Made by a program: the position numbers and the translations under genes. Of a stretch of DNA of 64,000 nucleotides, positions 219 through 35,063 are shown in pieces. The notes under the pieces are model-generated. The model searched no databases. It saw nothing but the letters and a program-made list of their open reading frames with translations, and had not been told where the DNA came from. Every line of letters starts with the position of its first letter. The stretch's first letter is position 1. The DNA is from Patescibacteria group bacterium. GTDB taxonomy: Bacteria; Patescibacteriota; Microgenomatia; UBA12405. The stretch covers positions 119,301-183,300 of the forward strand of contig WARW01000001.1 in the NCBI GenBank assembly GCA_013387215.1. Direction: 5' to 3'.

Positions 219-932
219 ATGTATTATAAATTCATGGATCTAAATAGTGTCAAACTTAACTCGAAATCTAACACCATATATATTGTTTTGTCTGCCATCT
301 TAGTTATTTTATCAATTGCCGGAATTTTACTCCTTTTTCAAATAATTAAAACAGGAAATCAGAAAACTGCCGACACCATTTCTAATCAGGAAACTCCCAC
401 TCCTACCACTAATCCTATTCCTACTGAAGTCGTTGACATTAAACCGTCCGTTAAACCAACAATTGCTTTGTCACCAAAAGTTACTCAAACTGCATCCAAT
501 TCTGCTTTAAAATCTAATCCAACCTTAAAACCAACAATTGCTCCAAAACCAACCGCCACTTCAAGCGCCAATTTGCAACTTTTCTCAAGTCCTGACGATA
601 AATTCTCTGTTTCTTATAGTTCCTCAAGAAAATTAGTTCAAGACACAGAATCCACTGGAAATCGATATACTTTTTCCTCAGCTAACGGTAATTTTGCCAT
701 TCATGTCGCCACTGATGGTAAATGGGCCTGGACTAACACCTCCCGGGAATTTTCTACTGCCTTCACAGTCGCTGGCTTGCCTACCTTTAGATACGACATT
801 ACCACTCAGACTATTGTTGACTTCCAGTCCAACAATAAAAATTTCACCATTCAATGTATTCACAATGGTAAGAGTGATCTTAAAACCGAATGTGATGCTT
901 TCATAAAAAGCATAAAAGTAGCCGCCAACTAA
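219..932 (+). CDS. hypothetical membrane-anchored protein with Pro/Thr-rich linker
   Basis: N-terminal TM helix (IYIVLSAILVILSIAGILLLF), then a low-complexity PT-rich linker and a C-terminal globular region. No recognisable motif. Confidence 0.4.
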   Translation: MYYKFMDLNSVKLNSKSNTIYIVLSAILVILSIAGILLLFQIIKTGNQKTADTISNQETPTPTTNPIPTEVVDIKPSVKPTIALSPKVTQTASNSALKSNPTLKPTIAPKPTATSSANLQLFSSPDDKFSVSYSSSRKLVQDTESTGNRYTFSSANGNFAIHVATDGKWAWTNTSREFSTAFTVAGLPTFRYDITTQTIVDFQSNNKNFTIQCIHNGKSDLKTECDAFIKSIKVAAN

Positions 933-1990
933 AGTTCGTATTTTATTTCTCTGGTTGTTGGATTTAGGTATTCAAAATTTATGGAAATTACTTTAGCCAC
1001 TTTTTGTAATTCTAAAAAGTTTTCCTTTCCCATATTTTCTGGCCACTCAATGCAGGCAATTGAATTATTGGTAAAAAGTTCAAAAAACTTTATTTCTTGC
1101 AGCTCGAAGTCTGCCGTAATTCGGTATAAATCAAAATGTAAGAATTTTTTATCATCAGTTTGGTATTCATTGTAAATCACAAAAGTAGGGGAGGTGATTT
1201 TCTCTTTAACACCAAGCAAATGTCCTAATCTTCGGCTAAATACAGTTTTACCGCAGCCCAAATCGCCGCTTAACGAAAAGACAATTGGTTTTCCACTATT
1301 TTTTTCAATCGCTTTTTTCAATAAAAATTCCGCTACTTTTTCCGTTTCTTTTTCCGATTTAGACACCAATGTTTGCGAGCTTCCGGTAATCAAATCACCC
1401 CTTCTTAAAATTTTCAATTCCGGTTCAGTAGCGTCAACCACTGTTGATGGTTTATTATTTGGCAGTTTGCCTCCATCAACAATCAAATCAATCATATCTT
1501 TTTTCTTTTTTGACAACGGTCTTAGAAAACTTGCTACCGAATAGTTTGGAGTTCTTCCGGAAAGGTTGGCTGAAGTGGCAGTAACTGGTCTGTTCACTGC
1601 CATAACTAAATCATGAATATATTTATTATCAGGAATTCTAATTCCCAAAGTTCCATTTTCAGCTTCAATACCTTTTGCCACCTGATGTTTTCCTTTGCTG
1701 ACAATAGTAAATGGCCCTGGTAATAAATTTTTATAAATATTTTGAGCCGATTCGCTTAACTCCACATATTTTTCTGCCATTTTCTTATCTGTTACTGCTA
1801 CTGAAATTGCTTTTCCGGTCCATCTGTTTTTAAATCCCAAAAGTTTTTCCACGGCCGACTTGTTAGTTGGATCAACTGCCAAAATATAAACAGTATCAGA
1901 TGGAAAAATCACTAGTCTACCTGCCAAAATTGTCTGGGCGGTTTCCTTAATTACATTTTCATAATTGTCGTTAATATCAACGATTTTCAT
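929..1990 (-). CDS. fused L-threonylcarbamoyladenylate synthase (TsaC/YrdC domain) and TsaE (YjeE P-loop ATPase) for t6A biosynthesis
   Basis: N-terminal half has the YrdC/Sua5 fold signature (IFPSDTVYILAVDP...ISVAV). C-terminal half has the TsaE Walker A SGDLGCGKT followed by SPTFVIYNEY...HFDLYRI. The neighbouring tsaD supports a t6A cluster. Confidence 0.75.
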   Translation of the reverse strand: MKIVDINDNYENVIKETAQTILAGRLVIFPSDTVYILAVDPTNKSAVEKLLGFKNRWTGKAISVAVTDKKMAEKYVELSESAQNIYKNLLPGPFTIVSKGKHQVAKGIEAENGTLGIRIPDNKYIHDLVMAVNRPVTATSANLSGRTPNYSVASFLRPLSKKKKDMIDLIVDGGKLPNNKPSTVVDATEPELKILRRGDLITGSSQTLVSKSEKETEKVAEFLLKKAIEKNSGKPIVFSLSGDLGCGKTVFSRRLGHLLGVKEKITSPTFVIYNEYQTDDKKFLHFDLYRITADFELQEIKFFELFTNNSIACIEWPENMGKENFLELQKVAKVISINFEYLNPTTREIKYEL

Positions 1991-2692: not shown

Positions 2693-4999
2693 ATGGAAAA
2701 AAGCTATAGTCCATCCTCTGAAGATAAAATATACGAACTTTGGCAAGATTCTGGCGCCTTTACACCAACCGTTCCCGAAGATCCAATAAAAGCTCGAAAA
2801 GAAAAAGAACCATTCACAATTATTTTGCCGCCGCCTAATGCCAACAATCCTTTGCACGCTGGTCACGCCCTTTATACTGTTGAAGATATTATGATTCGTT
2901 TCCATCGCATGTTGGATGGCAAAGATAAAACTCTTTGGCTTCCAGGAACCGATCACGCTGGTATTGAAACCCAGTTTGTCTATGAAAAACATCTCCAAAA
3001 ACAGGGCAAATCTCGATTTGACTATGACCGTGAAACTTTGTTTAAAATGATTTTTGAGTATGTGTCTGAAAATCGCGATGTTGCTAAAAACCAAATGAAA
3101 CGCCTTGGTTTTTCACTCGATTGGAGCCGTGAAAAATTTACTATGGACGAAGACCATATTAAACGTGTTTATGCCGTATTCAAGAAAATGGTTGATGAGG
3201 GACTTGTTTATCGTGATGAAAAAATCGTCAATTATTGTACTTTCTGTGGCACTGCTTTTTCCAACCTTGAAGTTGTCCACAAACCAGTTGCTTCTCATCT
3301 TTGGTATTTTAAATATCCAGTAGTTGGGCAAGAAGGTCGATTTGTTACTGTTGCCACCACCAGACCAGAAACCATGCTTGGTGATACTGCAGTTGCTGTA
3401 AATCCCAAAGATCCTCGTTATTCCGATCTTAAAGATAAAAAATTATTATTGCCATTAGTTAATAAAGAAATCCCTATTATTTTTGAAGATTCAATCGATA
3501 TGGAATTTGGAACTGGCGCTGTTAAAGTCACTCCGTCTCATTCTCCAGAAGATTATGATATGGGCAAGAAATTTAATTTGGAATTTGTCCGCATCATTGA
3601 TTTCGATGGAAAATTCAACAAAAACGTCCCTGAAAAATATCGAGGTTTATATTCAAATCAAGTTAGACAGGCAGTTATCGAAGACTTAACTACTGCTGGT
3701 TTAATGGAAAAAATCGAAGATTATACTCACGAAGTTGGTCACTGCTATCGTTGTGGCCGCCCAATTGAACCGTTAACTGCTCCTCAATGGTATGTCAAAA
3801 TCAAACCATTAGCCGACAAAGCTAAAGCTGCAGTTAGCGCTGATGAAGTCAAAATCTTCCCCAAAAGATTTAAAAAATCTTTCTTAACCTGGATGAAAGA
3901 CATCAAAGATTGGCCTATTTCAAGGCAAATTGTTTGGGGTCATCGCATTCCTGTTTGGTACAACATGGATGAAAATCCAGAAATTACTATTACTCTTATT
4001 ACTCCTCAAGGTGAAACATTATCTGGCACTTGGTCAGAATTAACTTCAAAATATTCTTATGAAGACATCAAAAAAGGTCTTCAAAGTTTAATAGCGCCAG
4101 TTAATGCTAAATTTTATCTTTCTGAAACTGAAGCTGCTAAAAAAAGTGAGTGCGTTCTTCAGGAAACTGATACTTTTGATACTTGGTTTTCCTCAGGTCA
4201 GTGGCCATATTCCACTCTCGGTTGGGAGCCAAACGGCAATCACTCTAAAGACTTTTTGTATTTTTACCCAACTTCAGTTCTAGACACCATGTGGGACATT
4301 CTTTTCTTTTGGGTTGCCCGTATGATCATGATGGGTCTTTATGTTACTGGTGAAGTTCCATTTAAAGTTGCCCACATGCATTCTCGGGTCGTCGATTCCA
4401 AAGGCCAAAAAATGTCTAAATCCAAAGGCAATGTTATCGATCCTGTCGTCACGGCTAATCTTTATGGTTCCGATGCTTTGCGTATGGCTTTGGTTTTCGG
4501 TGTTGCACCAGGCTCGGATATTGCCCTTTCTGATGACAAAATTCGTGCCCAACGCAATTTCGTCAACAAAATTTGGAACGCTTCCCGTTTTGTTCAAATG
4601 CTTATCGATCGTCTCAAAGAAACCAATCCAAATCTAAAAGTTTCTCTCAATATCGATAAAACTAAATTAACTTCCGAAGACAAAGATATTCTTGGTAACT
4701 TGAATAAAATTACCGAATCTACCACTAAAAATTTAAATAAATATCATTTTGGTCAAGCTTCTGAAGATCTTTATCATTTCTTTTGGAATGATTTTTGTGA
4801 TGTCTACATTGAACATGCCAAAAATAGGGGAGAAGATGTTGTTCCGGTTTTATTGACAGTTTTAATTAATAGTTTGAAACTCCTGCACCCATTTATTCCG
4901 TTTGTTACGGAAACAGTTTATCAAGATTTCAAAAACCTATTTGGGTTCAAAGAAGAGCTTCTAATCACCAGTTCCTGGCCAACTGTCAATGAAGTCTAA
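2693..4999 (+). CDS. valS: valyl-tRNA synthetase (short form lacking C-terminal coiled coil)
   Basis: Class I HIGH motif (PPPNANNPLHAGHAL) and KMSKS (GQKMSKSKGNVIDP). Editing-domain and anticodon-binding regions are colinear with ValRS. 768 aa. Confidence 0.9.
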   Translation: MEKSYSPSSEDKIYELWQDSGAFTPTVPEDPIKARKEKEPFTIILPPPNANNPLHAGHALYTVEDIMIRFHRMLDGKDKTLWLPGTDHAGIETQFVYEKHLQKQGKSRFDYDRETLFKMIFEYVSENRDVAKNQMKRLGFSLDWSREKFTMDEDHIKRVYAVFKKMVDEGLVYRDEKIVNYCTFCGTAFSNLEVVHKPVASHLWYFKYPVVGQEGRFVTVATTRPETMLGDTAVAVNPKDPRYSDLKDKKLLLPLVNKEIPIIFEDSIDMEFGTGAVKVTPSHSPEDYDMGKKFNLEFVRIIDFDGKFNKNVPEKYRGLYSNQVRQAVIEDLTTAGLMEKIEDYTHEVGHCYRCGRPIEPLTAPQWYVKIKPLADKAKAAVSADEVKIFPKRFKKSFLTWMKDIKDWPISRQIVWGHRIPVWYNMDENPEITITLITPQGETLSGTWSELTSKYSYEDIKKGLQSLIAPVNAKFYLSETEAAKKSECVLQETDTFDTWFSSGQWPYSTLGWEPNGNHSKDFLYFYPTSVLDTMWDILFFWVARMIMMGLYVTGEVPFKVAHMHSRVVDSKGQKMSKSKGNVIDPVVTANLYGSDALRMALVFGVAPGSDIALSDDKIRAQRNFVNKIWNASRFVQMLIDRLKETNPNLKVSLNIDKTKLTSEDKDILGNLNKITESTTKNLNKYHFGQASEDLYHFFWNDFCDVYIEHAKNRGEDVVPVLLTVLINSLKLLHPFIPFVTETVYQDFKNLFGFKEELLITSSWPTVNEV

Positions 5000-6327: not shown

Positions 6328-7329
6328 ATGACAAATTCTAATAAACCTCGCATTCTCACTGGTGATCGGCCAACTGGTCCGCTTCACCTTGGTCATTACG
6401 TTGGCACTCTTGCCAATCGTGTTAAGTTGCAAAGCAAATACGATTGCTACTTTATCATGGCCGATTTGCATACTTTAACCACCAATTTTTCCAGAGAAAA
6501 AACTTCCACTATTAACGAACGTGTTCGAGGTTTAGTTTTGGATTATCTATCGGTGGGCATTGATCCGGAAAAATGTGTCATCTATCAGCAATCAAAAGTT
6601 CCAGAAGTAACCTATCTTTCCGCCTTATTTTCAAACCTAGTCACTGTGCCTCGGGCTCAAAGAGTTCCCACCCTTAAAGAAGTCATGCACGATTTGAATA
6701 TTGAAAAACCGTCTTTAGGTCTTTTAAATTATCCGGTTTTGCAGGCAGCCGACATCTTAATGGTCAAAGCTAATTTAGTTCCGGTTGGTAAAGATCAAGT
6801 TAGCCATGTTGAAGTTACCCGTGAAATTGCCACTGATTTTAACCGAATTTACGGCGAAGTTTTTCCTATTCCTGAAGCTTTAGTTGGTGATGTTGGTACT
6901 CTTGTTGGCACCGATGGTCAAGCCAAAATGAGCAAATCTATTGGAAATTGTATTTATTTGGGCGACGACGAAGCCACTGTCAATCAAAAAGTCCGTGGCA
7001 TGTATACCGACCCAACTCGTATCAAAGCTACTGATCCAGGCAAAGTTGAAGGTAATCCTGTTTTTATATATCACGATGCTTTCAATCCCAACAAAGCCGA
7101 AGTTGAAGATCTTAAAGCTCGCTACCGCGAAGGTAAAGTGGGGGATGTTGAGGTAAAAACCAAGCTGGCTTTAGCCATAAATCAATTTTTAGAACCAATT
7201 CGTGAAAAACGACGATTTTACGAAACCAAAACTGATTTAATTGAAAATATTATTGAATCTGGTTCCAAAAAAGCTCGTCTCGAAGCTCAAGACACTCTCA
7301 ATCAAGTTCTAAAAGCCATGGGCATCTAA
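6328..7329 (+). CDS. trpS: tryptophanyl-tRNA synthetase
   Basis: HIGH motif ([11 protein letters not shown]) and KMSKS (AKMSKSIGN); 333 aa, typical TrpRS size. Confidence 0.9.
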
Positions 7330-7381: not shown

Positions 7382-7849
7382 TCAAAGACTACGAAAGAGT
7401 TCAATTTCCGGTGATGGCAGGCGATCAAAACCGGAAGTCCAGACTATGTCATTAATTAATTCCCAAAAACCGGCAACCTCTGTCGCTTGGAGTTGTGCGT
7501 AACGATGATTATTATTCCCATTATTTGCTTGGGTTGAAAAAATTTTCACCCCGTCTGGAAGTCGATTCTCCAAATAATAATTTTCAAAAACTCCTTTTAC
7601 CCACCAGCATCCACTGTCTCTCATGAGTTCATACGTGTCGATTTTTCCGACCGCAAAAATTTCGTCGCCCAGAATCAGCAACGTGAAATTCAGCCTTAAT
7701 CTGGCATCCAAAAGCTCCTTAAGATAACCCATTTTCTTTTGTCTTTTTTGGTACTGCATGTCTGCATAATTCACAAAAAACACCTCTTTCCTTTTAATGT
7801 GCAAGTTAAAACCGCTATTAGTTTTACTTGGTCGTATTCTAGCACACAA
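7382..7849 (-). CDS. hypothetical protein
   Basis: ORF only; no confident motif. The real start may be the internal Met at MQYQKRQKK. Confidence 0.3.
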   Translation of the reverse strand: MCARIRPSKTNSGFNLHIKRKEVFFVNYADMQYQKRQKKMGYLKELLDARLRLNFTLLILGDEIFAVGKIDTYELMRDSGCWWVKGVFENYYLENRLPDGVKIFSTQANNGNNNHRYAQLQATEVAGFWELINDIVWTSGFDRLPSPEIELFRSL

Positions 7850-8110
7850 TTAAAATGGTACTTTTTCCAGGTTAATATAAGTTCCAATTGCATTTCCGGC
7901 CGCGTAAGCAACTAAAATAGGGAAGTTTCCGTGTAAATTATTAGCAATCTCATAAATTATAAAAATTGCGATGAAATTTTCAAAAAATACCAAGAGGGCC
8001 GCTTTTTTGGATTGGCCTTTTGAAATCCAATAAGTTCTTTGTGTTGCCAAAAACATCTCCACGAATCCTACGGCAAAATATCCTAGTGCTTGCAAAATAA
8101 AATGCATCAT
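7850..8110 (-). CDS. small membrane protein
   Basis: Two to three predicted TM helices. AAGGAG RBS 8 nt upstream of the ATG at 8108-8110. The overlapping alternative ORF 7980..8192 was rejected. Confidence 0.4.
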   Translation of the reverse strand: MMHFILQALGYFAVGFVEMFLATQRTYWISKGQSKKAALLVFFENFIAIFIIYEIANNLHGNFPILVAYAAGNAIGTYINLEKVPF

Positions 8111-8289
8111 AACTACTCCTTATGAATTTAAAAAGTCTCTGTATGCCCTGAGGTTCCGACGGAGGCTCAGACAAAGTTTGTTTTTGTTTCATTTTGGAAA
8201 AATTTAACTTATTGGCTACAAATTCTACCTATTGAAGCTAATTTAAACAAGCCAAAATCTCACAAAATTATTTTTTATATAATCAATAT

Positions 8290-8724
8290 ATGGATCATGT
8301 GGCTATTTTAAAATCATCACTCGGTTTTTTGGAAAAAATAAAAAACGGCACTAAAACTATCGAATCGCGTTGGTATTCCAAAAGAATAAGTCCCTGGAAT
8401 CAGATCAAAGCGGGTGAGATTATTTATTTTAAAAACTCTGGTTCCCCAATAACCCTCAAATGCCAGGTTGAAAAAGTCCTTCAATTTTCTGATTTAACTT
8501 CTACGAAAATTGAGGAATTACTCCGTAAATATGGTAAATATATAGGATTTACGCTTCAACAACAGGAATTATTTTACAAAGAGATTTGTCATAAAAATTA
8601 CGCCATCCTCATCTTTTTAAGTCAAGTGCAGTCTTTAAAACCGTTTGATATTGATAAAACCGGCTTTGGCAACATGTCAGCCTGGCTTTCAGTCGCCGAT
8701 ATTAATCTTATTAAAAAACTTTAA
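8290..8724 (+). CDS. ASCH-domain protein
   Basis: Small beta-barrel-type protein with TIESRW...GEIIYFK pattern resembling the ASCH/PUA-like fold. Confidence 0.4.
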   Translation: MDHVAILKSSLGFLEKIKNGTKTIESRWYSKRISPWNQIKAGEIIYFKNSGSPITLKCQVEKVLQFSDLTSTKIEELLRKYGKYIGFTLQQQELFYKEICHKNYAILIFLSQVQSLKPFDIDKTGFGNMSAWLSVADINLIKKL

Positions 8725-9201
8725 TTATTTTGGAAATATTATTCTAAAAAGATCTTTTTCTTTATCAAGACTCCCATATTTATTTGCTTCCAAATCGCCC
8801 TTTTTAAAAAGTAAAATCAAAATCAAAACAACATTTACGAGCACGAAATATTCATTTATAAACTGAAGAAATAAAACTAGAAGTAAAATTCCTGGAGCAT
8901 TAAAATCATGCAGCCTTCTGTATGCTAGAGAAAAAGTCAAAAACAAAACAAAAATACTGATTATTAAAGTTATCGTTGAAGCAGTTTGGTTAATAGTGTC
9001 TATTTGTGAATAAGTAATTTTTAGTTGTTCTTCACTGATTAAATCAGCTCTGGAAACATAAATCCTGTCAGTCAATAATTTTGACACCATTCCTATGGCA
9101 AAAGATATTATCCCCACAAAAACCACTAATGTTAAAACTGAGGAAAAATAGTTAATTCTTTTTATTCTCCCTGTAAAAAATTTCTTCAAAAACCACACCA
9201 T
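8725..9201 (-). CDS. DUF805-family inner membrane protein
   Basis: FTGRIKRINYF motif (the GRI.R..Y hallmark of DUF805) followed by several TM helices. Confidence 0.45.
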   Translation of the reverse strand: MVWFLKKFFTGRIKRINYFSSVLTLVVFVGIISFAIGMVSKLLTDRIYVSRADLISEEQLKITYSQIDTINQTASTITLIISIFVLFLTFSLAYRRLHDFNAPGILLLVLFLQFINEYFVLVNVVLILILLFKKGDLEANKYGSLDKEKDLFRIIFPK

Positions 9202-9257
9202 GATTAACTAATCTTATCAGGAAATTGAAAAACATATCTTTTCACACAAGCGTTTTG

Positions 9258-9324
9258 AGTGGGTATGCATGTCCCTAGATCCCCCTTGAGGGGAGATTCG
9301 AACCATTACCAGGCACTTGATTAG
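9258..9324 (-). other. tRNA 3'-half relic with duplicated tRNA-Ile 3' end
   Basis: Immediately 3' of tRNA-Ile, 14 nt of its 3' end (CATGCATACCCACT) recur after a 53-nt insert. The insert contains a T-loop-like GGTTCGAATC and a CCCCTCAAGGGGG hairpin. Confidence 0.35.
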
Positions 9325-9398
9325 TGGGTATGCATGGATTCGAACCATGGACCCCCGACTTATAAGATCGGTGCTCTAACCAACTGAGCTACATACCC
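9325..9398 (-). tRNA. tRNA-Ile with anticodon UAU (unusual in bacteria)
   Basis: Reverse complement folds as GGGTATG-TA-GCTC-AGTTGGTTA-GAGC-A-CCGAT-CTTATAA-GTCGG-GGGTC-CATGG-TTCGAAT-CCATG-CATACCC-A. Anticodon positions 34-36 read TAT. The 5' half closely resembles tRNA-Ile. No CCA encoded. Confidence 0.65.
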
Positions 9399-9412
9399 AA
9401 AATATAAAAAAG

Positions 9413-9486
9413 TAGCAGGGGCGGGAATCGAACCCGCGACCTTAGCGTTATGAATGCTACGCTCTAACCATCTGAGCTACCCTGCC
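9413..9486 (-). tRNA. tRNA-Met (anticodon CAT), elongator-like; tRNA-Ile2(LAU) not excluded
   Basis: Reverse complement folds as GGCAGGG-TA-GCTC-AGATGGTTA-GAGC-G-TAGCA-TTCATAA-CGCTA-AGGTC-GCGGG-TTCGATT-CCCGC-CCCTGCT-A with anticodon CAT. One A-C mismatch closes the anticodon stem; the first acceptor pair is a G-U wobble. Confidence 0.7.
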
Positions 9487-9666
9487 GTACTCGCTATTAT
9501 ATCAAAATTATTTTAAAGTCTCCCTTGCTTAAGGCAATCAAATTCAAAGGAAATTTTAGTAATAACAGAGTCAGGATACAAAAAAGCCGTCAAATTAATG
9601 ACGACCTCTCTGTTTCAATATTCGTTTGGACAAGTAGTAACATAAACGATAGGTTTATGTTCTTTG

Positions 9667-9736
9667 TTGCGGGGCCAGGAGTTGAACCTGGCCTGTGAGA
9701 TTATGAGCCTCACGTGCAGCCGTACACTACCCCGCA
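9667..9736 (-). tRNA. tRNA-Met (anticodon CAT), initiator-like
   Basis: Reverse complement TGCGGGG-TA-GTGT...TGAGG-CTCATAA-TCTCA-CAGG-CCAGG-TTCAACT-CCTGG-CCCCGCA-A. The CTCATAA anticodon loop and the 3' end GGTTCAA.TCC..CCCCGCAAC closely resemble bacterial tRNA-fMet. Position 1 is U, not C, so the 1-72 pair is not the classical C-A mismatch. Confidence 0.6.
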
Positions 9737-9771: not shown

Positions 9772-10128
9772 TTACTTAGTAAACAAATCAAACCACTGTT
9801 GAAATTTGGGCTTAACCGTCCCGATATTCTTATCTTCAAACAAATTTGTCTTTTTTTCTGGTGTCACTTGTATCCATACATCGTTTTCTGTGCCTAAGGC
9901 AAACTTATCTCTAGCTTGCTCTTCAAGATATGCGCTTGAACTTGCATATTCAATTTGGCTGATTAATTTTCGGTTGCTGATTTTTCGTTCAACTACGTTT
10001 TTTTCTAGCTCTTGAACTTGCGATCTGGCCATAACCAAAGCCGAAAACTGGCGGCTGATATTGATCCCAGCCGAAGCCGATACGATTAATACTACCAAAA
10101 GTAAGGTTATAAACTTGATTTGCTTCAT
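9772..10128 (-). CDS. septum formation initiator (FtsB/DivIC-like) protein
   Basis: 118 aa with an N-terminal TM helix, a coiled coil and a C-terminal motif similar to FtsB (SSAYLEEQARDKFALG). Confidence 0.45.
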   Translation of the reverse strand: MKQIKFITLLLVVLIVSASAGINISRQFSALVMARSQVQELEKNVVERKISNRKLISQIEYASSSAYLEEQARDKFALGTENDVWIQVTPEKKTNLFEDKNIGTVKPKFQQWFDLFTK

Positions 10129-10191: not shown

Positions 10192-11061
10192 ATGTCCGAT
10201 TTATCTTTAGATGGAGCCTTAAATCTATTTGTCAACGCCCTTTCCAAGAAGGGTAAATCTACTAATACTATAGTAGCTTACAAAGGCGACATCAATCAAC
10301 TAATTAGCTTCTTAAAAGCGCAATCTAACGTTGCCACTATTGACGTTATCCAAGGTTCAGATATTGATAACTTCAAAAAAGACCTAATTAAAAACAACTA
10401 TACTGCGAAATCAGTTTCTCGAAAATTGAATTCCATCAAAAATTTCTTCTCTTTTCTAAAGACCGAAGGAGTAATTTCTGCCGATCCATCTTCAGAAATT
10501 AAACATCCTCGATACGAAAACGATCTTCCAAAGATTTTAAAACCGATTGAATATCGTTCACTTCGCGATGCCTGCCGAAATGATTCTCGTGCTACTGCTA
10601 TCGTCGAATTGATGCTTCAAGCTGGTTTAAGAATCAAAGAAATTGAAAATCTTAAACTTGATAACGTTAAAGACAATGAAGTTTTCATCGAAAGCTATGA
10701 AAGTCATTCTGATAGAATCGTTCCTTTAAATAATTCTGCTAAAACTGCTTTAAAAAAGTACCTTGATGAAGGCCGTTACAACAGCAAATCTAAAAATGTA
10801 TTTGTCACTAAAACTGGTCGAACTCTTTTAGCTAGAAACATTCGTAGTCTTTTGAACCGTTATTTTGATAAAGCCGATATTAAAGGTGTCAAAGTCAACG
10901 ACTTGCGTAACACTTTTATCGTTTTTCAACTTAAATCCGGTGTTCCAATCGATGTTGTCTCTCAAATCGTTGGTCACAAAAGAATTTCTACTACCGAAAA
11001 GTATTTGGAATTAATTGATTCTAAAGAAGAAGGTAAGGGAATTAAACTTAAAGAACTATAA
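10192..11061 (+). CDS. tyrosine site-specific recombinase, XerC/XerD-like
   Basis: N-terminal SAM-like core-binding domain; the C-terminal catalytic region has conserved R...LR and VGHKRISTTEKY (the H-x-x-R...Y of tyrosine recombinases). 289 aa. Confidence 0.7.
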   Translation: MSDLSLDGALNLFVNALSKKGKSTNTIVAYKGDINQLISFLKAQSNVATIDVIQGSDIDNFKKDLIKNNYTAKSVSRKLNSIKNFFSFLKTEGVISADPSSEIKHPRYENDLPKILKPIEYRSLRDACRNDSRATAIVELMLQAGLRIKEIENLKLDNVKDNEVFIESYESHSDRIVPLNNSAKTALKKYLDEGRYNSKSKNVFVTKTGRTLLARNIRSLLNRYFDKADIKGVKVNDLRNTFIVFQLKSGVPIDVVSQIVGHKRISTTEKYLELIDSKEEGKGIKLKEL

Positions 11062-21523: not shown

Positions 21524-21599
21524 TCCCCTGTAGCTCAGTCGGTAGAGCGTCCGCCTGTTAAGCGGCAGGTCCTTGGTTCGAGTCCAAGCGGGGGAGCCA
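21524..21599 (+). tRNA. tRNA-Asn (anticodon GTT), CCA encoded
   Basis: TCCCCTG-TA-GCTC-AGTCGGTA-GAGC-G-TCCGC-CTGTTAA-GCGGC-AGGTC-CTTGG-TTCGAGT-CCAAG-CGGGGGA-G-CCA. Closely resembles canonical bacterial tRNA-Asn. Confidence 0.85.
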
Positions 21600-23177
21600 T
21601 ACTGGATTTGCAGGTCGCAAATCATCATTTTTCTCCATAATATCCGTATACTTTTGAGGTTCTAGCCAACCTTTATATTTTTCACTCCAATTTTGTTTAT
21701 CAGCCAATATTCCATATTCAGGTTTTAGCTTAACATCCACTAATTTATCAGTATTGAAGATGAGGTTCGCGCCAATAGTCATAAGAATCATTTGTTTATC
21801 AGCTCTAGAACCACTATTAAATTTGTATTGGCAAACTCTGGCAAATTCAATAGTATTTTCAACCTTGGTTCTCCAATCATCTAAGTCGTCAGTTGTACTA
21901 TCTAATTTGACCTTAATTTCATTTTTTTTAGCTTCAAGAATTTGTTTTTTCTCTTTGTAAGTTAGGTCATCAATAGTTTCATCCAGTTTCATGTCTAAAA
22001 GCTTATTCAATCGTCTTTCTATATTAGATAATTCTGTTTGTTGAGATTTAAGTTTTTCTTCTTTAAAACCAGATTCATCTTTATGAATGACAGAAAGCCA
22101 TTTGTTTGACCAATTAATGAAATCTTGGTCAGGAGTAAGTTTTATTAACAATGTGTCTAACTGTTTTAAAACATCTGCTTCGGTCAATGGTTTTGAATCA
22201 CACTTAATCTTTTTATTTTTCTTAGTGCAGTGGTAATAAGTGTAAGTAACAATTCGCCCAGTTCCTAAATAATGTTTAGTTTTTTGAGAAGCTGTTATTG
22301 CAGAACCGCATTTTTGACAACGAAATAACCCTGTTAAGTCAAAAGTATGGGTATGAGCAACTGGTTTACCAAATTTACCCAAAGCTTTCTGAACAATATC
22401 AAACTGTTCTCTGGTAATCATTGGTTCATGATGCCCATTAAACCAATTACCTGAACCTTGTGGATACTCAAATTCACCATAATAAAAAGGTTTATTAAGA
22501 ATATTGTAAAAAGTTGACCTTGAAAAAATTTGACCATGTTGGTTAGTTAATTTCCAAATCTCCGAAGCTTCTTTATAAACTTCAATTGCTTGTTTTCCTT
22601 TAATAACTTCCAAAAATAGTCTTTTAACCAAATCAAACCTTTCTTCGTCCTTAACAATTACTTTAAATCCTTTCTTTCTGTCTGGAGTATTCTTGTAACC
22701 CAACGGGGAAGATGATGGCATCCAGCCCATACCAGCTTTTGTACCCATTCCTCTTTTTGCATTTATTCCACGATTATCATTTTCTAATTTTGCCTGTCCA
22801 CATAAAATATTAAATAAAAATTTATCATTTGGATTGTTTCTAAAAACTTGGGTAGGAGTAATTATTTCGTCTAAAACATTTCTATCCATCATATAAATTA
22901 TTTGACCAGAATCTACTGAATTTCTGGATAGTCTGTCTGGATTCCATACAAGTATTTTTTTAACTTGTTGAGATTCCATATCTTTTAGTAATTGATTAAA
23001 AATTGGTCTTCCTGGCTTTTTGGCAGATTGTGATTCTTCATAATATGGAGTAACTAATTCAAGACCATCTCTTTTAGCTAATTTTTCTAAAGCTTCAATT
23101 TGAGAAGGGATAGAAAGAGCTTGTCTTTCTTCATCTTCTTGTGATTTTCTACAGTAAACAAAAACTTGGTTTTTCAT
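21558..23177 (-). CDS. large serine recombinase (resolvase/invertase N-terminal domain, recombinase and zinc-ribbon domains)
   Basis: N-terminus MKNQVFVYCRKSQEDEERQ...LSIPSQ (catalytic Ser region YxRxS), a long recombinase domain and a Cys-rich zinc ribbon (CQKCGS...YYHC). The last 14 codons (WLPRLDSNQGPAA) are encoded antisense to the tRNA-Asn 3' half; the stop codon lies in the anticodon loop. Start placed at the second Met. Confidence 0.8.
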   Translation of the reverse strand: MKNQVFVYCRKSQEDEERQALSIPSQIEALEKLAKRDGLELVTPYYEESQSAKKPGRPIFNQLLKDMESQQVKKILVWNPDRLSRNSVDSGQIIYMMDRNVLDEIITPTQVFRNNPNDKFLFNILCGQAKLENDNRGINAKRGMGTKAGMGWMPSSSPLGYKNTPDRKKGFKVIVKDEERFDLVKRLFLEVIKGKQAIEVYKEASEIWKLTNQHGQIFSRSTFYNILNKPFYYGEFEYPQGSGNWFNGHHEPMITREQFDIVQKALGKFGKPVAHTHTFDLTGLFRCQKCGSAITASQKTKHYLGTGRIVTYTYYHCTKKNKKIKCDSKPLTEADVLKQLDTLLIKLTPDQDFINWSNKWLSVIHKDESGFKEEKLKSQQTELSNIERRLNKLLDMKLDETIDDLTYKEKKQILEAKKNEIKVKLDSTTDDLDDWRTKVENTIEFARVCQYKFNSGSRADKQMILMTIGANLIFNTDKLVDVKLKPEYGILADKQNWSEKYKGWLEPQKYTDIMEKNDDLRPANPVWLPRLDSNQGPAA

Positions 23178-23459
23178 AAAATAAATTAAAAAATAAAAAT
23201 ACCCTCGCTGGTGCAACCAGAACTTATACAGCTCTGTCCAACGAGGGTATTTCTAAGTTGTATAAATTGTTCTGGTTGCATAATAATTATACTATTTTTG
23301 AATCATAAATTCACTATTTTTCTCCTAATAAACCAATAATATTAAATAGTTATTAAAGTAATAGTTACATTAATAAAATTAACCTTATAAGTAATAAATT
23401 ATTATTAATTTATTAAAGTAAAAGTTACTCTATAGTTAGAGTTACTATATACATAGTTA

Positions 23460-33506: not shown

Positions 33507-35063
33507 TTAAAACCCACAAACAGCAGTCCTGATTGAATCTAGGACGGGGAGCAAGTTGCTTGTTAATATAAGTGATTTTTGTTTGATCAGCTCAGCCACT
33601 AAAGGAGAATATTCCACACTTACAATGTTTTTATTATCCACATTAATTCTATTGAAGAAAAAATTTAAATATCTTCTTTTAAGAAAAACGGGGGAGTTAG
33701 AATAAGTTTTTGGGATATTTCTTGTAATGGAGAGCACTTCTGAAAGCAAATCAAAATCAAATTCTCTATTCGTATCCAATTTAGCCAATTCAGTATTTAC
33801 ACAATAAATATCATTCTGAATAATCGGATTTTGTGCTTTATAGTCTTCAGGTTCAATAGTTTCATCAAGTAAACGTGCCAATAAAATCTCAGCCTTTTTA
33901 GTTAACTCATTCTTCCTTCTCATAAGTCTATTTCTTTCCTTATCCTCTTCCTTTTTTCGCTCTTTTAGATATCTCTTTATTTTTACGACTAAAGCATTTG
34001 TAAACGCTTTTGAAAATTTAATATTTTGGAAATAGTTTTCAACCTTTCCTTCTAATTCATTTACTTCAACGCTTGGAGCATCACACGGAAACCTTTTGGC
34101 GCAATGATATATGCCATATTTTCCATCCCATTTTGCAAACTTAACATTATCATAATGATATTCTGCGGTATATCTCTGACCGCAACGATCACAAAAAATA
34201 ACGCCTCTTAAAAGGAAATCGTATTTTCTTTCCCTTATAATAAAATTTCTATGTTTAGCAGCTACCTGTTGGCACAAATCGAATGTCCGTTTAGAAATCA
34301 AAGGAATATGTTTACCAAGTTTTTGCTGCCCTTTCCATTGCATTAGACCATAATAAAAAGGATTGGTTAGAATTTTATTCATTGTGGAATGTGCTAATGG
34401 TTTTCCAGTTCTTGTTCTTAACCCCTTTTTTGATAAAAAGCTAATAAGACGAAACAAACTATAATTACCAGTCGAATATTTTTTAAAAGCAAGTGTAATA
34501 AAAGGACTAATTTTCTTATCGATTACAACTATTCCTTTATTATTCTTCCTTTGATTTTTGTAACCTAAAGGTGCCCATCCAGGCCACCAACCTTCTTCCC
34601 ATTTTCGGTCTAACCCTCTTTTAGTTTTTCTACTCAGGTCTTCTGAATAAAATTGATTTATACCTGCCATAAATGTATCCAACATCTTTCCTTCTGGAGA
34701 TTCGTCAAGCATAGGCTGTACAACCGAGATTAGTCTTGTGCCCACCGCTTTTATTCTTTCTTTAATTAAAAAATGGTCTGTTGCATTACGAGCGAATCTA
34801 TCGGTGTTATATACAATTATTGCTGCAGGTTTTATTGTATCCACCTGCTCTAACATTTTTAGAAATTCAGGTCTGTTTGAAACCGTAGCACTTTGACCTT
34901 CATCAACAAACGTATTTAAAACATTGTAATGTTGCCTTTTAGCCTCTTTTAGACAAATATCTTTTTGAGCATCAATAGAGTACCCTTCTTTTGCTTGTTC
35001 TTCAGTAGAAACTCTACAATAAATAAAACAATTTAATTTATTATTATCGTTTTCCATATCCAT
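33507..35063 (-). CDS. large serine recombinase 2
   Basis: N-terminus FIYCRVSTEEQAKEGYSIDAQ (catalytic Ser), recombinase domain and zinc ribbon (CDRCGQ...YHC). C-terminal tail PVLDSIRTAVCGF is encoded antisense to the relic tRNA 3' half, parallel to recombinase 1. Confidence 0.8.
   Translation of the reverse strand: MDMENDNNKLNCFIYCRVSTEEQAKEGYSIDAQKDICLKEAKRQHYNVLNTFVDEGQSATVSNRPEFLKMLEQVDTIKPAAIIVYNTDRFARNATDHFLIKERIKAVGTRLISVVQPMLDESPEGKMLDTFMAGINQFYSEDLSRKTKRGLDRKWEEGWWPGWAPLGYKNQRKNNKGIVVIDKKISPFITLAFKKYSTGNYSLFRLISFLSKKGLRTRTGKPLAHSTMNKILTNPFYYGLMQWKGQQKLGKHIPLISKRTFDLCQQVAAKHRNFIIRERKYDFLLRGVIFCDRCGQRYTAEYHYDNVKFAKWDGKYGIYHCAKRFPCDAPSVEVNELEGKVENYFQNIKFSKAFTNALVVKIKRYLKERKKEEDKERNRLMRRKNELTKKAEILLARLLDETIEPEDYKAQNPIIQNDIYCVNTELAKLDTNREFDFDLLSEVLSITRNIPKTYSNSPVFLKRRYLNFFFNRINVDNKNIVSVEYSPLVAELIKQKSLILTSNLLPVLDSIRTAVCGF
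33513..33550 (+). other. degenerate copy of the tRNA-Asn 3' half (attR-like relic)
   Basis: CAGCAG-TCCTGATTGAATCTAGGACGGGGAGC aligns with tRNA-Asn positions ~39-73 (CGGCAGGTCCTTGGTTCGAGTCCAAGCGGGGGAGC). It has the same orientation as the tRNA and is overlapped antisense by the C-terminus of the second serine recombinase. Confidence 0.45.

Follow-up and report, generated by a model that had tools for sequence, protein, structure and literature searches.

The 64,000-nucleotide stretch of DNA analysed here (the window) was confirmed to carry a genuine tRNA-Ile gene with a genomically encoded UAU anticodon, far beyond what chance would produce, and we consider it highly probable that this member of a conserved tRNA cluster reads AUA directly as isoleucine. 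Telling AUA (Ile) apart from AUG (Met) is a classic problem in decoding, which nearly all bacteria studied solve by means of TilS and lysidine; TilS is regarded as essential. To our knowledge, the system of Mycoplasma mobile is the sole bacterial UAU tRNA-Ile system studied experimentally. While an encoded bacterial tRNA-Ile(UAU) and the M. mobile type of AUA decoding are already established, what is new, if modest, is that the gene is, across the sequences compared, fixed and clustered in a broad CPR clade.

On the minus strand, ARAGORN placed a tRNA-Ile with the anticodon tat at 9324-9398, and the Rfam family RF00005 matched 9398-9325 from end to end with 74.5 bits (gathering score 29; E-value 1.8e-14). 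The alignment covered model positions 1-71 of 71, and zero non-canonical pairs were flagged. As aligned by Infernal, the anticodon stem CCGAU/GUCGG consisted of C27-G43, C28-G42, G29-C41, A30-U40 and U31-G39, the last of these being the single G-U pair, and enclosed the 7-nt loop CUUAUAA (C32 U33 U34 A35 U36 A37 A38) with UAU at positions 34-36. The initial annotation had described a minus-strand tRNA-Ile with an encoded UAU anticodon, U33 and A37 in a seven-base loop, and a five-pair stem with one G-U pair; ARAGORN and RF00005 agreed on the gene, and every structural detail matched the alignment. Neither ARAGORN nor the RF00005 alignment supported another anticodon register for this gene, including the TTA-type reading that had been considered as an alternative. 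The same alignment showed the discriminator A73 together with A37, A38 and U12-A23, which we take to be identity elements recognized by E. coli IleRS. No CCA end was encoded when the sequence of the gene was read. The features of the window relevant here are listed in Table 1; ARAGORN found four tRNA genes in total.

Table 1. Positions of features in the window and the basis of their assignment.
Feature	Position	Strand	Basis
Fused TsaC/Sua5-TsaE gene (t6A37 biosynthesis)	929-1990	-	Pfam Sua5_yciO_yrdC + TsaE; NCBIfam TIGR00057 + TIGR00150
Short ValRS	2693-4999		
TrpRS (trpS)	6328-7329		
Partial second copy of the tRNA-Ile(UAU) 3' end	9258-9306	-	Exact direct repeats
tRNA-Ile(UAU)	9325-9398	-	ARAGORN; RF00005 74.5 bits; covariation in relatives
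tRNA(CAU), most likely elongator tRNA-Met	9413-9486 (ARAGORN 9412-9486)	-	Rfam 68 bits
tRNA(CAU), initiator-like	9667-9736 (ARAGORN 9666-9736)	-	Rfam 49.2 bits
DivIC-like protein	9772-10128	-	
Xer-type tyrosine recombinase	10192-11061		
tRNA-Asn(gtt)	21524-21599	+	ARAGORN
Ribosomal protein L25, HerA-like ATPase, DnaG, RpoD	window genes		

Two tRNA(CAU) genes had also been noticed alongside, and both were recovered by ARAGORN and Rfam on the minus strand. According to Silva et al. (2006, PMC1635315), whose rules for telling Met from Ile2 among CAU tRNAs were derived from 234 non-CPR genomes and may not fit CPR bacteria, tRNA-Ile(CAT) genes are marked by G3, A3, C70 or T70 with C4-G69 and C5-G68 being frequent, while C3-G70 is usual in Met and fMet tRNAs. 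Both local CAU tRNAs had C3-G70 and neither C4-G69 nor C5-G68; by these criteria (PMC1635315) they differ from the canonical tRNA-Ile2 in the acceptor-stem features common there. The tRNA adjacent to tRNA-Ile(UAU) showed G1-U72, G2-C71, C3-G70, A4-U69 and G5-C68, the loop UUCAUAA and an A31xC39 mismatch, and C3 was present in all 61 distinct forms of its orthologues. Judging from these positions, it is most likely an elongator tRNA-Met and not a tRNA-Ile2. Across many contigs the elongator-like tRNA-Met commonly had G1-U72 together with a non-Watson-Crick 31-39 combination (AxC, U-G or AxA) closing the loop UUCAUAA.

The third tRNA of the cluster had the acceptor stem UGCGGGG/CCCCGCA followed by A73, containing U1-A72, G2-C71 and C3-G70, the loop CUCAUAA, and A29G30G31/U39C40U41. 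The acceptor stem presumably matches that of E. coli tRNA-fMet closely. In the set of Silva et al. (PMC1635315), initiators have C1/A72 (A1-U72 or U1-A72 in 1.5%), G2, C3, G70, C71 and R29G30G31/Y39C40Y41, and A11-T24 occurs in 100% of bacterial tRNA-fMet genes. The weak 1-72 pair, G2-C71, C3-G70 and R29G30G31/Y39C40Y41 were all found in the present tRNA, and the Rfam alignment placed U11-A24 where initiators have A11-U24. Also atypical were its D loop of 6 nt and its variable loop of 4 nt. On account of U11-A24 we call it initiator-like and not a proven initiator. It was near-invariant in seven species genomes, and its pattern appeared in more than 120 metagenome stretches; the features were almost unchanged in L058-L065 and L138-L217. 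A11-U24 is a determinant of formylation, and one may ask if Met-tRNAi is formylated at all in bacteria with such a tRNA. If both CAU assignments are right, the cluster would be a full set of readers for AUG at initiation, AUG at elongation and AUA, and any tRNA-Ile2(CAU) would be a fourth gene located elsewhere.

The cluster of Candidatus Shapirobacteria and allied CPR bacteria lay between the Xer-type recombinase/DivIC genes and trpS, in the order of initiator-like tRNA(CAU), elongator tRNA-Met(CAU) and tRNA-Ile(UAU) as the third member. ARAGORN found the identical three-tRNA set adjoining trpS in five Shapirobacteria species genomes (L058, L059, L060, L061 and L063). In the tRNA-Ile(UAU) sequences of six species, the window included, the cloverleaf was 100% paired, six pairs showed compensatory changes, and the anticodon arm CCGAUCUUAUAAGUCGG was invariant. 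The orientation and spacing of tRNA-Ile(UAU) varied in L059, L063 and others. In a Patescibacteria single-cell genome (L065), no third tRNA was found within the 95 nt available downstream of the elongator-like tRNA.

The distribution of the gene was further investigated by a metagenome scan. As the near-invariant initiator-like tRNA, not the UAU tRNA, served as the query, the third slot of the cluster was sampled without bias. The scan returned more than 120 stretches, and 80 of them were examined as loci. By protein identity to the window, these fell into two ranges, one Shapirobacteria-like (Xer 76-83%, TrpRS 73-81%) and the other distant (Xer 44-54%, TrpRS 36-41%), and UAU tRNAs occurred in both groups. 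A tRNA(UAU) was detected by ARAGORN in 49 of the 70 sequences holding an elongator-like CAU tRNA, and was directly adjacent (300 nt or less away, on the same strand) in 35 of the 49. In 16 of the 70, all more distant loci, a downstream flank of 400 nt or more held none near the cluster, and the remaining five were truncated. The 16 loci indicate that the trait may be non-universal in the wider clade or that these genomes may have the gene at another place. Among 38 distinct UAU sequences, taken from metagenome contigs and from related genomes, 99.9% of cells were paired and 18 of 21 pairs covaried, while none of 500 shuffles matched the observed pairing and covariation, and slid controls were only 16-44% paired. 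The seven loop bases CUUAUAA were invariant in 38 of 38. By this comparison of sequences, tRNA-Ile(UAU) is taken to be a functional gene under strong purifying selection, and a trait of the lineage rather than an oddity of one genome. The rarity claimed for such a tRNA stood in part: bacterial tRNA-Ile(UAU) is still described as 'rare cases' in a 2026 preprint (bioRxiv 10.64898/2026.02.03.703510), but within this lineage, at 49 of 70 related loci, it is the rule.

The window itself is cellular chromosomal DNA, not viral, with a G+C content of 28-37%. With one genome per prokaryotic species, the best matches of its TrpRS showed 74-81% identity; five of them were Candidatus Shapirobacteria MAGs, and L058 (81%) and L064 (74%), labelled as uncultured Gammaproteobacteria, are taken to be mislabelled members of this group because they share its gene order. 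They were followed by the Patescibacteria single-cell genome with 70%; all other phyla gave 67% or less. The expectation of an AT-rich, ultra-small genome was borne out by this affiliation. Frequent use of AUA had also been foreseen, and the codon count agreed: among 18,383 codons in 65 non-overlapping ORFs of the window, 416 were ATA, which corresponded to 22.6 per 1000 and made up 24.5% of the codons for Ile. The syntenic core (1-21.5 kb) used ATA at 14.3 per 1000, and a low-GC island (21.5-40 kb) used it at 32.1 per 1000; a recent survey termed values above 10 per 1000 "high" (PMC12514573). In alignments with Shapirobacteria orthologues, the ATA codons of the window were paired with ATT (28%), ATA (13%) and ATC (8%), 48% together, and ATG was outside their ten commonest partners; ATG codons of the window were aligned with ATG in 57% of cases. 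When 72 distant orthologues were compared, both ATA codons of trpS, the only two available for this test, stood on Ile-dominated columns (Ile in 73% of cells). As ATA pairs with ATT, ATA and ATC in relatives and falls on Ile columns in trpS, AUA behaves, on these alignments, as an isoleucine codon in this lineage.

The proposed mechanism is that the transcript with the UAU anticodon would read the abundant AUA codons as isoleucine through direct U34-A pairing. AUU and AUC would be left to a tRNA-Ile(GAU), presumed to lie outside the window, and AUG to the two CAU tRNAs. The t6A pathway, to which the fused TsaC/Sua5-TsaE gene of the window belongs, is expected to modify A37 of ANN-reading tRNAs, tRNA-Ile(UAU) included. 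By the precedent of M. mobile, A37 would be t6A, the tRNA would be charged by an IleRS tolerating U34, and AUG would be kept from being misread by tRNA-Met competing for it and/or by a ribosomal property. In that bacterium, tRNA-Ile(UAU) carries t6A, IleRS accepts U34, which E. coli IleRS rejects, via a single Arg at the W905 position, and AUG misreading is limited by tRNA-Met competition together with a ribosome property (PMC3575796). The present tRNA resembles M. mobile tRNA-Ile2(UAU) in its encoded UAU, in A37, and in occurring in a small AT-rich genome with many AUA codons (PMC3575796; PMC1635315), where it stands at the point at which a dedicated AUA reader is needed. Unlike M. mobile, one of the Mollicutes, the bacteria here belong to the CPR, and many species share the gene as a fixed trait, in one cluster with the Met and initiator tRNAs. 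For M. mobile, the loss of tilS, the W905-equivalent IleRS residue, the state of U34 and the ribosomal discrimination were established by experiment. Like the canonical tRNA-Ile2(CAU), converted by TilS to a lysidine (LAU) anticodon, the tRNA would read AUA as Ile and spare AUG; in contrast to it, the anticodon is encoded as TAT and not CAT, so there is no cytidine from which lysidine could be formed. An encoded UAU tRNA-Ile is shared with another pair of bacteria, Lactobacillus plantarum and L. casei (PMC3575796).

A reading in which the tRNA gives AUA a meaning other than Ile, or in which the gene is a pseudogene or its anticodon was read in the wrong register, is considered exceedingly improbable. 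The exchange of ATA with ATT and ATC, and not with ATG, in relatives argues against the former, and the full-length 74.5-bit match with no mismatched pair, the strong covariation and the invariant loop rule against the latter. It is likewise very unlikely that the gene is an accessory tRNA from a phage or an integrative element, serving AT-rich mobile genes and not the core genome. As many as 57 IMG/VR viral contigs carried a tRNA(UAU) sharing the anticodon and the general D-arm shape, the gene is closely followed by a partial copy of its 3' end and by lineage-specific ORFs, and ATA use peaks in the island. None of the 57 viral contigs, however, shared the anticodon arm, the core genes also use ATA, and the gene occupies a core chromosomal position, its synteny with trpS, Xer, HerA and both CAU tRNAs being kept among many species at 44-83% protein identity. 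Rather than cargo, tRNA-Ile(UAU) looks like an integration target.

Whether the directly reading tRNA-Ile(UAU) replaces the tRNA-Ile2(CAU)/TilS lysidine system, rather than supplementing it, is a question on which the chances appear about equal. That Ca. Shapirobacteria and neighbouring Microgenomates-type lineages wholly gave up lysidine, having neither tilS nor tRNA-Ile2(CAU), is a tentative proposal to which we give slightly less than an even chance. A redundant stage, in which the UAU tRNA is functional while tilS and tRNA-Ile2(CAU) are kept elsewhere and AUA is read by two tRNAs, is also a serious possibility, put somewhat further below one half. Such a stage was explicitly proposed in the evolutionary model of Taniguchi et al. 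(2013, PMC3575796), and in L. plantarum and L. casei tilS is documented alongside tRNA-Ile(TAT) (PMC3575796). As these species carry both systems, a UAU tRNA does not safely imply the absence of tilS. In addition, about 98% of annotated bacterial genomes have tilS (PMC12514573), and the window shows about 6% of a roughly 1-Mb genome. The evidence against redundancy is indirect and weak, and leans towards a loss of tilS. ARAGORN found no third CAU tRNA in 89 related sequences around the cluster, where the UAU tRNA and the two AUG readers together make a complete AUG/AUA set. Neither the window nor the related loci (about 677 kb), which together represent one syntenic neighbourhood of about 1-Mb genomes, contained an ORF with a PP-loop (SGGxDS).

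The surroundings of ftsH also bear on this question, since ftsH is a neighbour of tilS in Mycoplasma (PMC1635315). In 13 CPR loci of more distant relatives (L065, L138, L149, L156, L161, L166, L171, L172, L174, L188, L192, L196 and L202), trpS and the cluster of Met/fMet(/Ile-UAU) tRNAs were separated from ftsH by zero to two genes. Upstream of it was a GNAT acetyltransferase, a stand-alone tRNA-binding-domain protein (PF01588) or trpS, and neither TilS nor Hpt was found beside ftsH in any of the 13, which is likewise indirect evidence against a retained tilS. Pfam scans of most window ORFs of at least 100 aa detected no TilS, IleRS or U34-modification enzyme, and tblastn with the window ValRS detected no IleRS in the window or the 677 kb of related loci, again one neighbourhood. 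A ValRS paralogue with 28% identity in L061 and L190 was considered as a candidate IleRS and rejected, as it proved to be an archaeal-type ValRS. This enzyme (NCBIfam PRK13208, 931 bits; 28% identity to the window ValRS) is encoded at 6026-8440 of L061 and 4483-6639 of L190, where other Shapirobacteria have a bacterial-type ValRS, and is read here as an in-place displacement of an aminoacyl-tRNA synthetase.

If lysidine has indeed been abandoned, these lineages would be by far the largest bacterial group known to decode AUA, at more than 20 per 1000, without it. This would imply an adaptation of IleRS throughout the lineage, together with a ribosome or U34 chemistry that keeps AUG from being read as Ile. 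CPR species using AUA heavily would then offer a natural, species-rich test bed for IleRS and the ribosome without lysidine. If tilS is present, tRNA-Ile(UAU) shrinks to an ordinary redundant isoacceptor. In either case, the tRNA trio adjoining trpS provides a simple genomic marker for the lineage. By 2013, nine bacterial species in three clades without tilS, some species with both systems, and 371 unique tDNA-Ile(TAT) sequences from metagenomes were known (PMC3575796). In the literature on CPR, Patescibacteria, Saccharibacteria, Microgenomates and Parcubacteria, we found no link to lysidine or tilS.

The partial second copy of the tRNA-Ile(UAU) 3' end, 18 nt downstream of the gene, comprises 26 nt, namely a 12-mer from the T-loop/T-stem and a 14-mer from the acceptor 3' strand, which are split by a 23-nt GC hairpin insert. 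The corresponding exact direct repeats are 9258-9271/9323-9336 and 9295-9306/9337-9348. Between this copy and trpS, three ORFs at 7382-9201, one of them a DUF805 protein, had no homologue in related genomes, and downstream repeats of a similar kind were observed in L139, L196 and L201. An integration or excision event at tRNA-Ile(UAU), the 3' end of which appears to be a recombination hotspot, may have left the partial copy behind. A role of the hairpin as a terminator was rejected: the search for terminator-like sites found none, and shuffled sequences folded as well as 9240-9330 itself (z = -0.25).

Further along the window, tRNA-Asn(GUU) shares its 3' end with the ORF of a large serine recombinase (21558-23216, minus strand). 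From this tRNA on (21.5 kb), a variable region of low G+C content (28-32%) extends over 21.6-46 kb and contains a second large serine recombinase (33507-35063), zinc-ribbon membrane proteins and restriction/defence genes, along with a GmrSD-HNH protein, an EcoRI-like adenine methyltransferase, two Mrr-type nucleases and an HNH-RecQ helicase. The window contains no further copy of the tRNA-Asn 3' end by which the distal boundary of the island could be recognized.

Unusual genes sharing parts with tRNA-Ile(UAU) were observed among the metagenome loci. Tandem tRNA-like genes at 5231-5383 of L201 and 1206-1280 of L193 have the 5' half of tRNA-Ile(UAU), the palindrome CCGACGTACGTCGG in place of the anticodon arm, and a weak acceptor stem; ARAGORN reported a 2-base anticodon for them. 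At 334-409 of L206, a chimeric tRNA has the tRNA-Ile(UAU) body behind a 5' acceptor strand that belongs to the elongator tRNA-Met; it may have arisen by recombination of adjacent similar genes or may be an assembly artefact.
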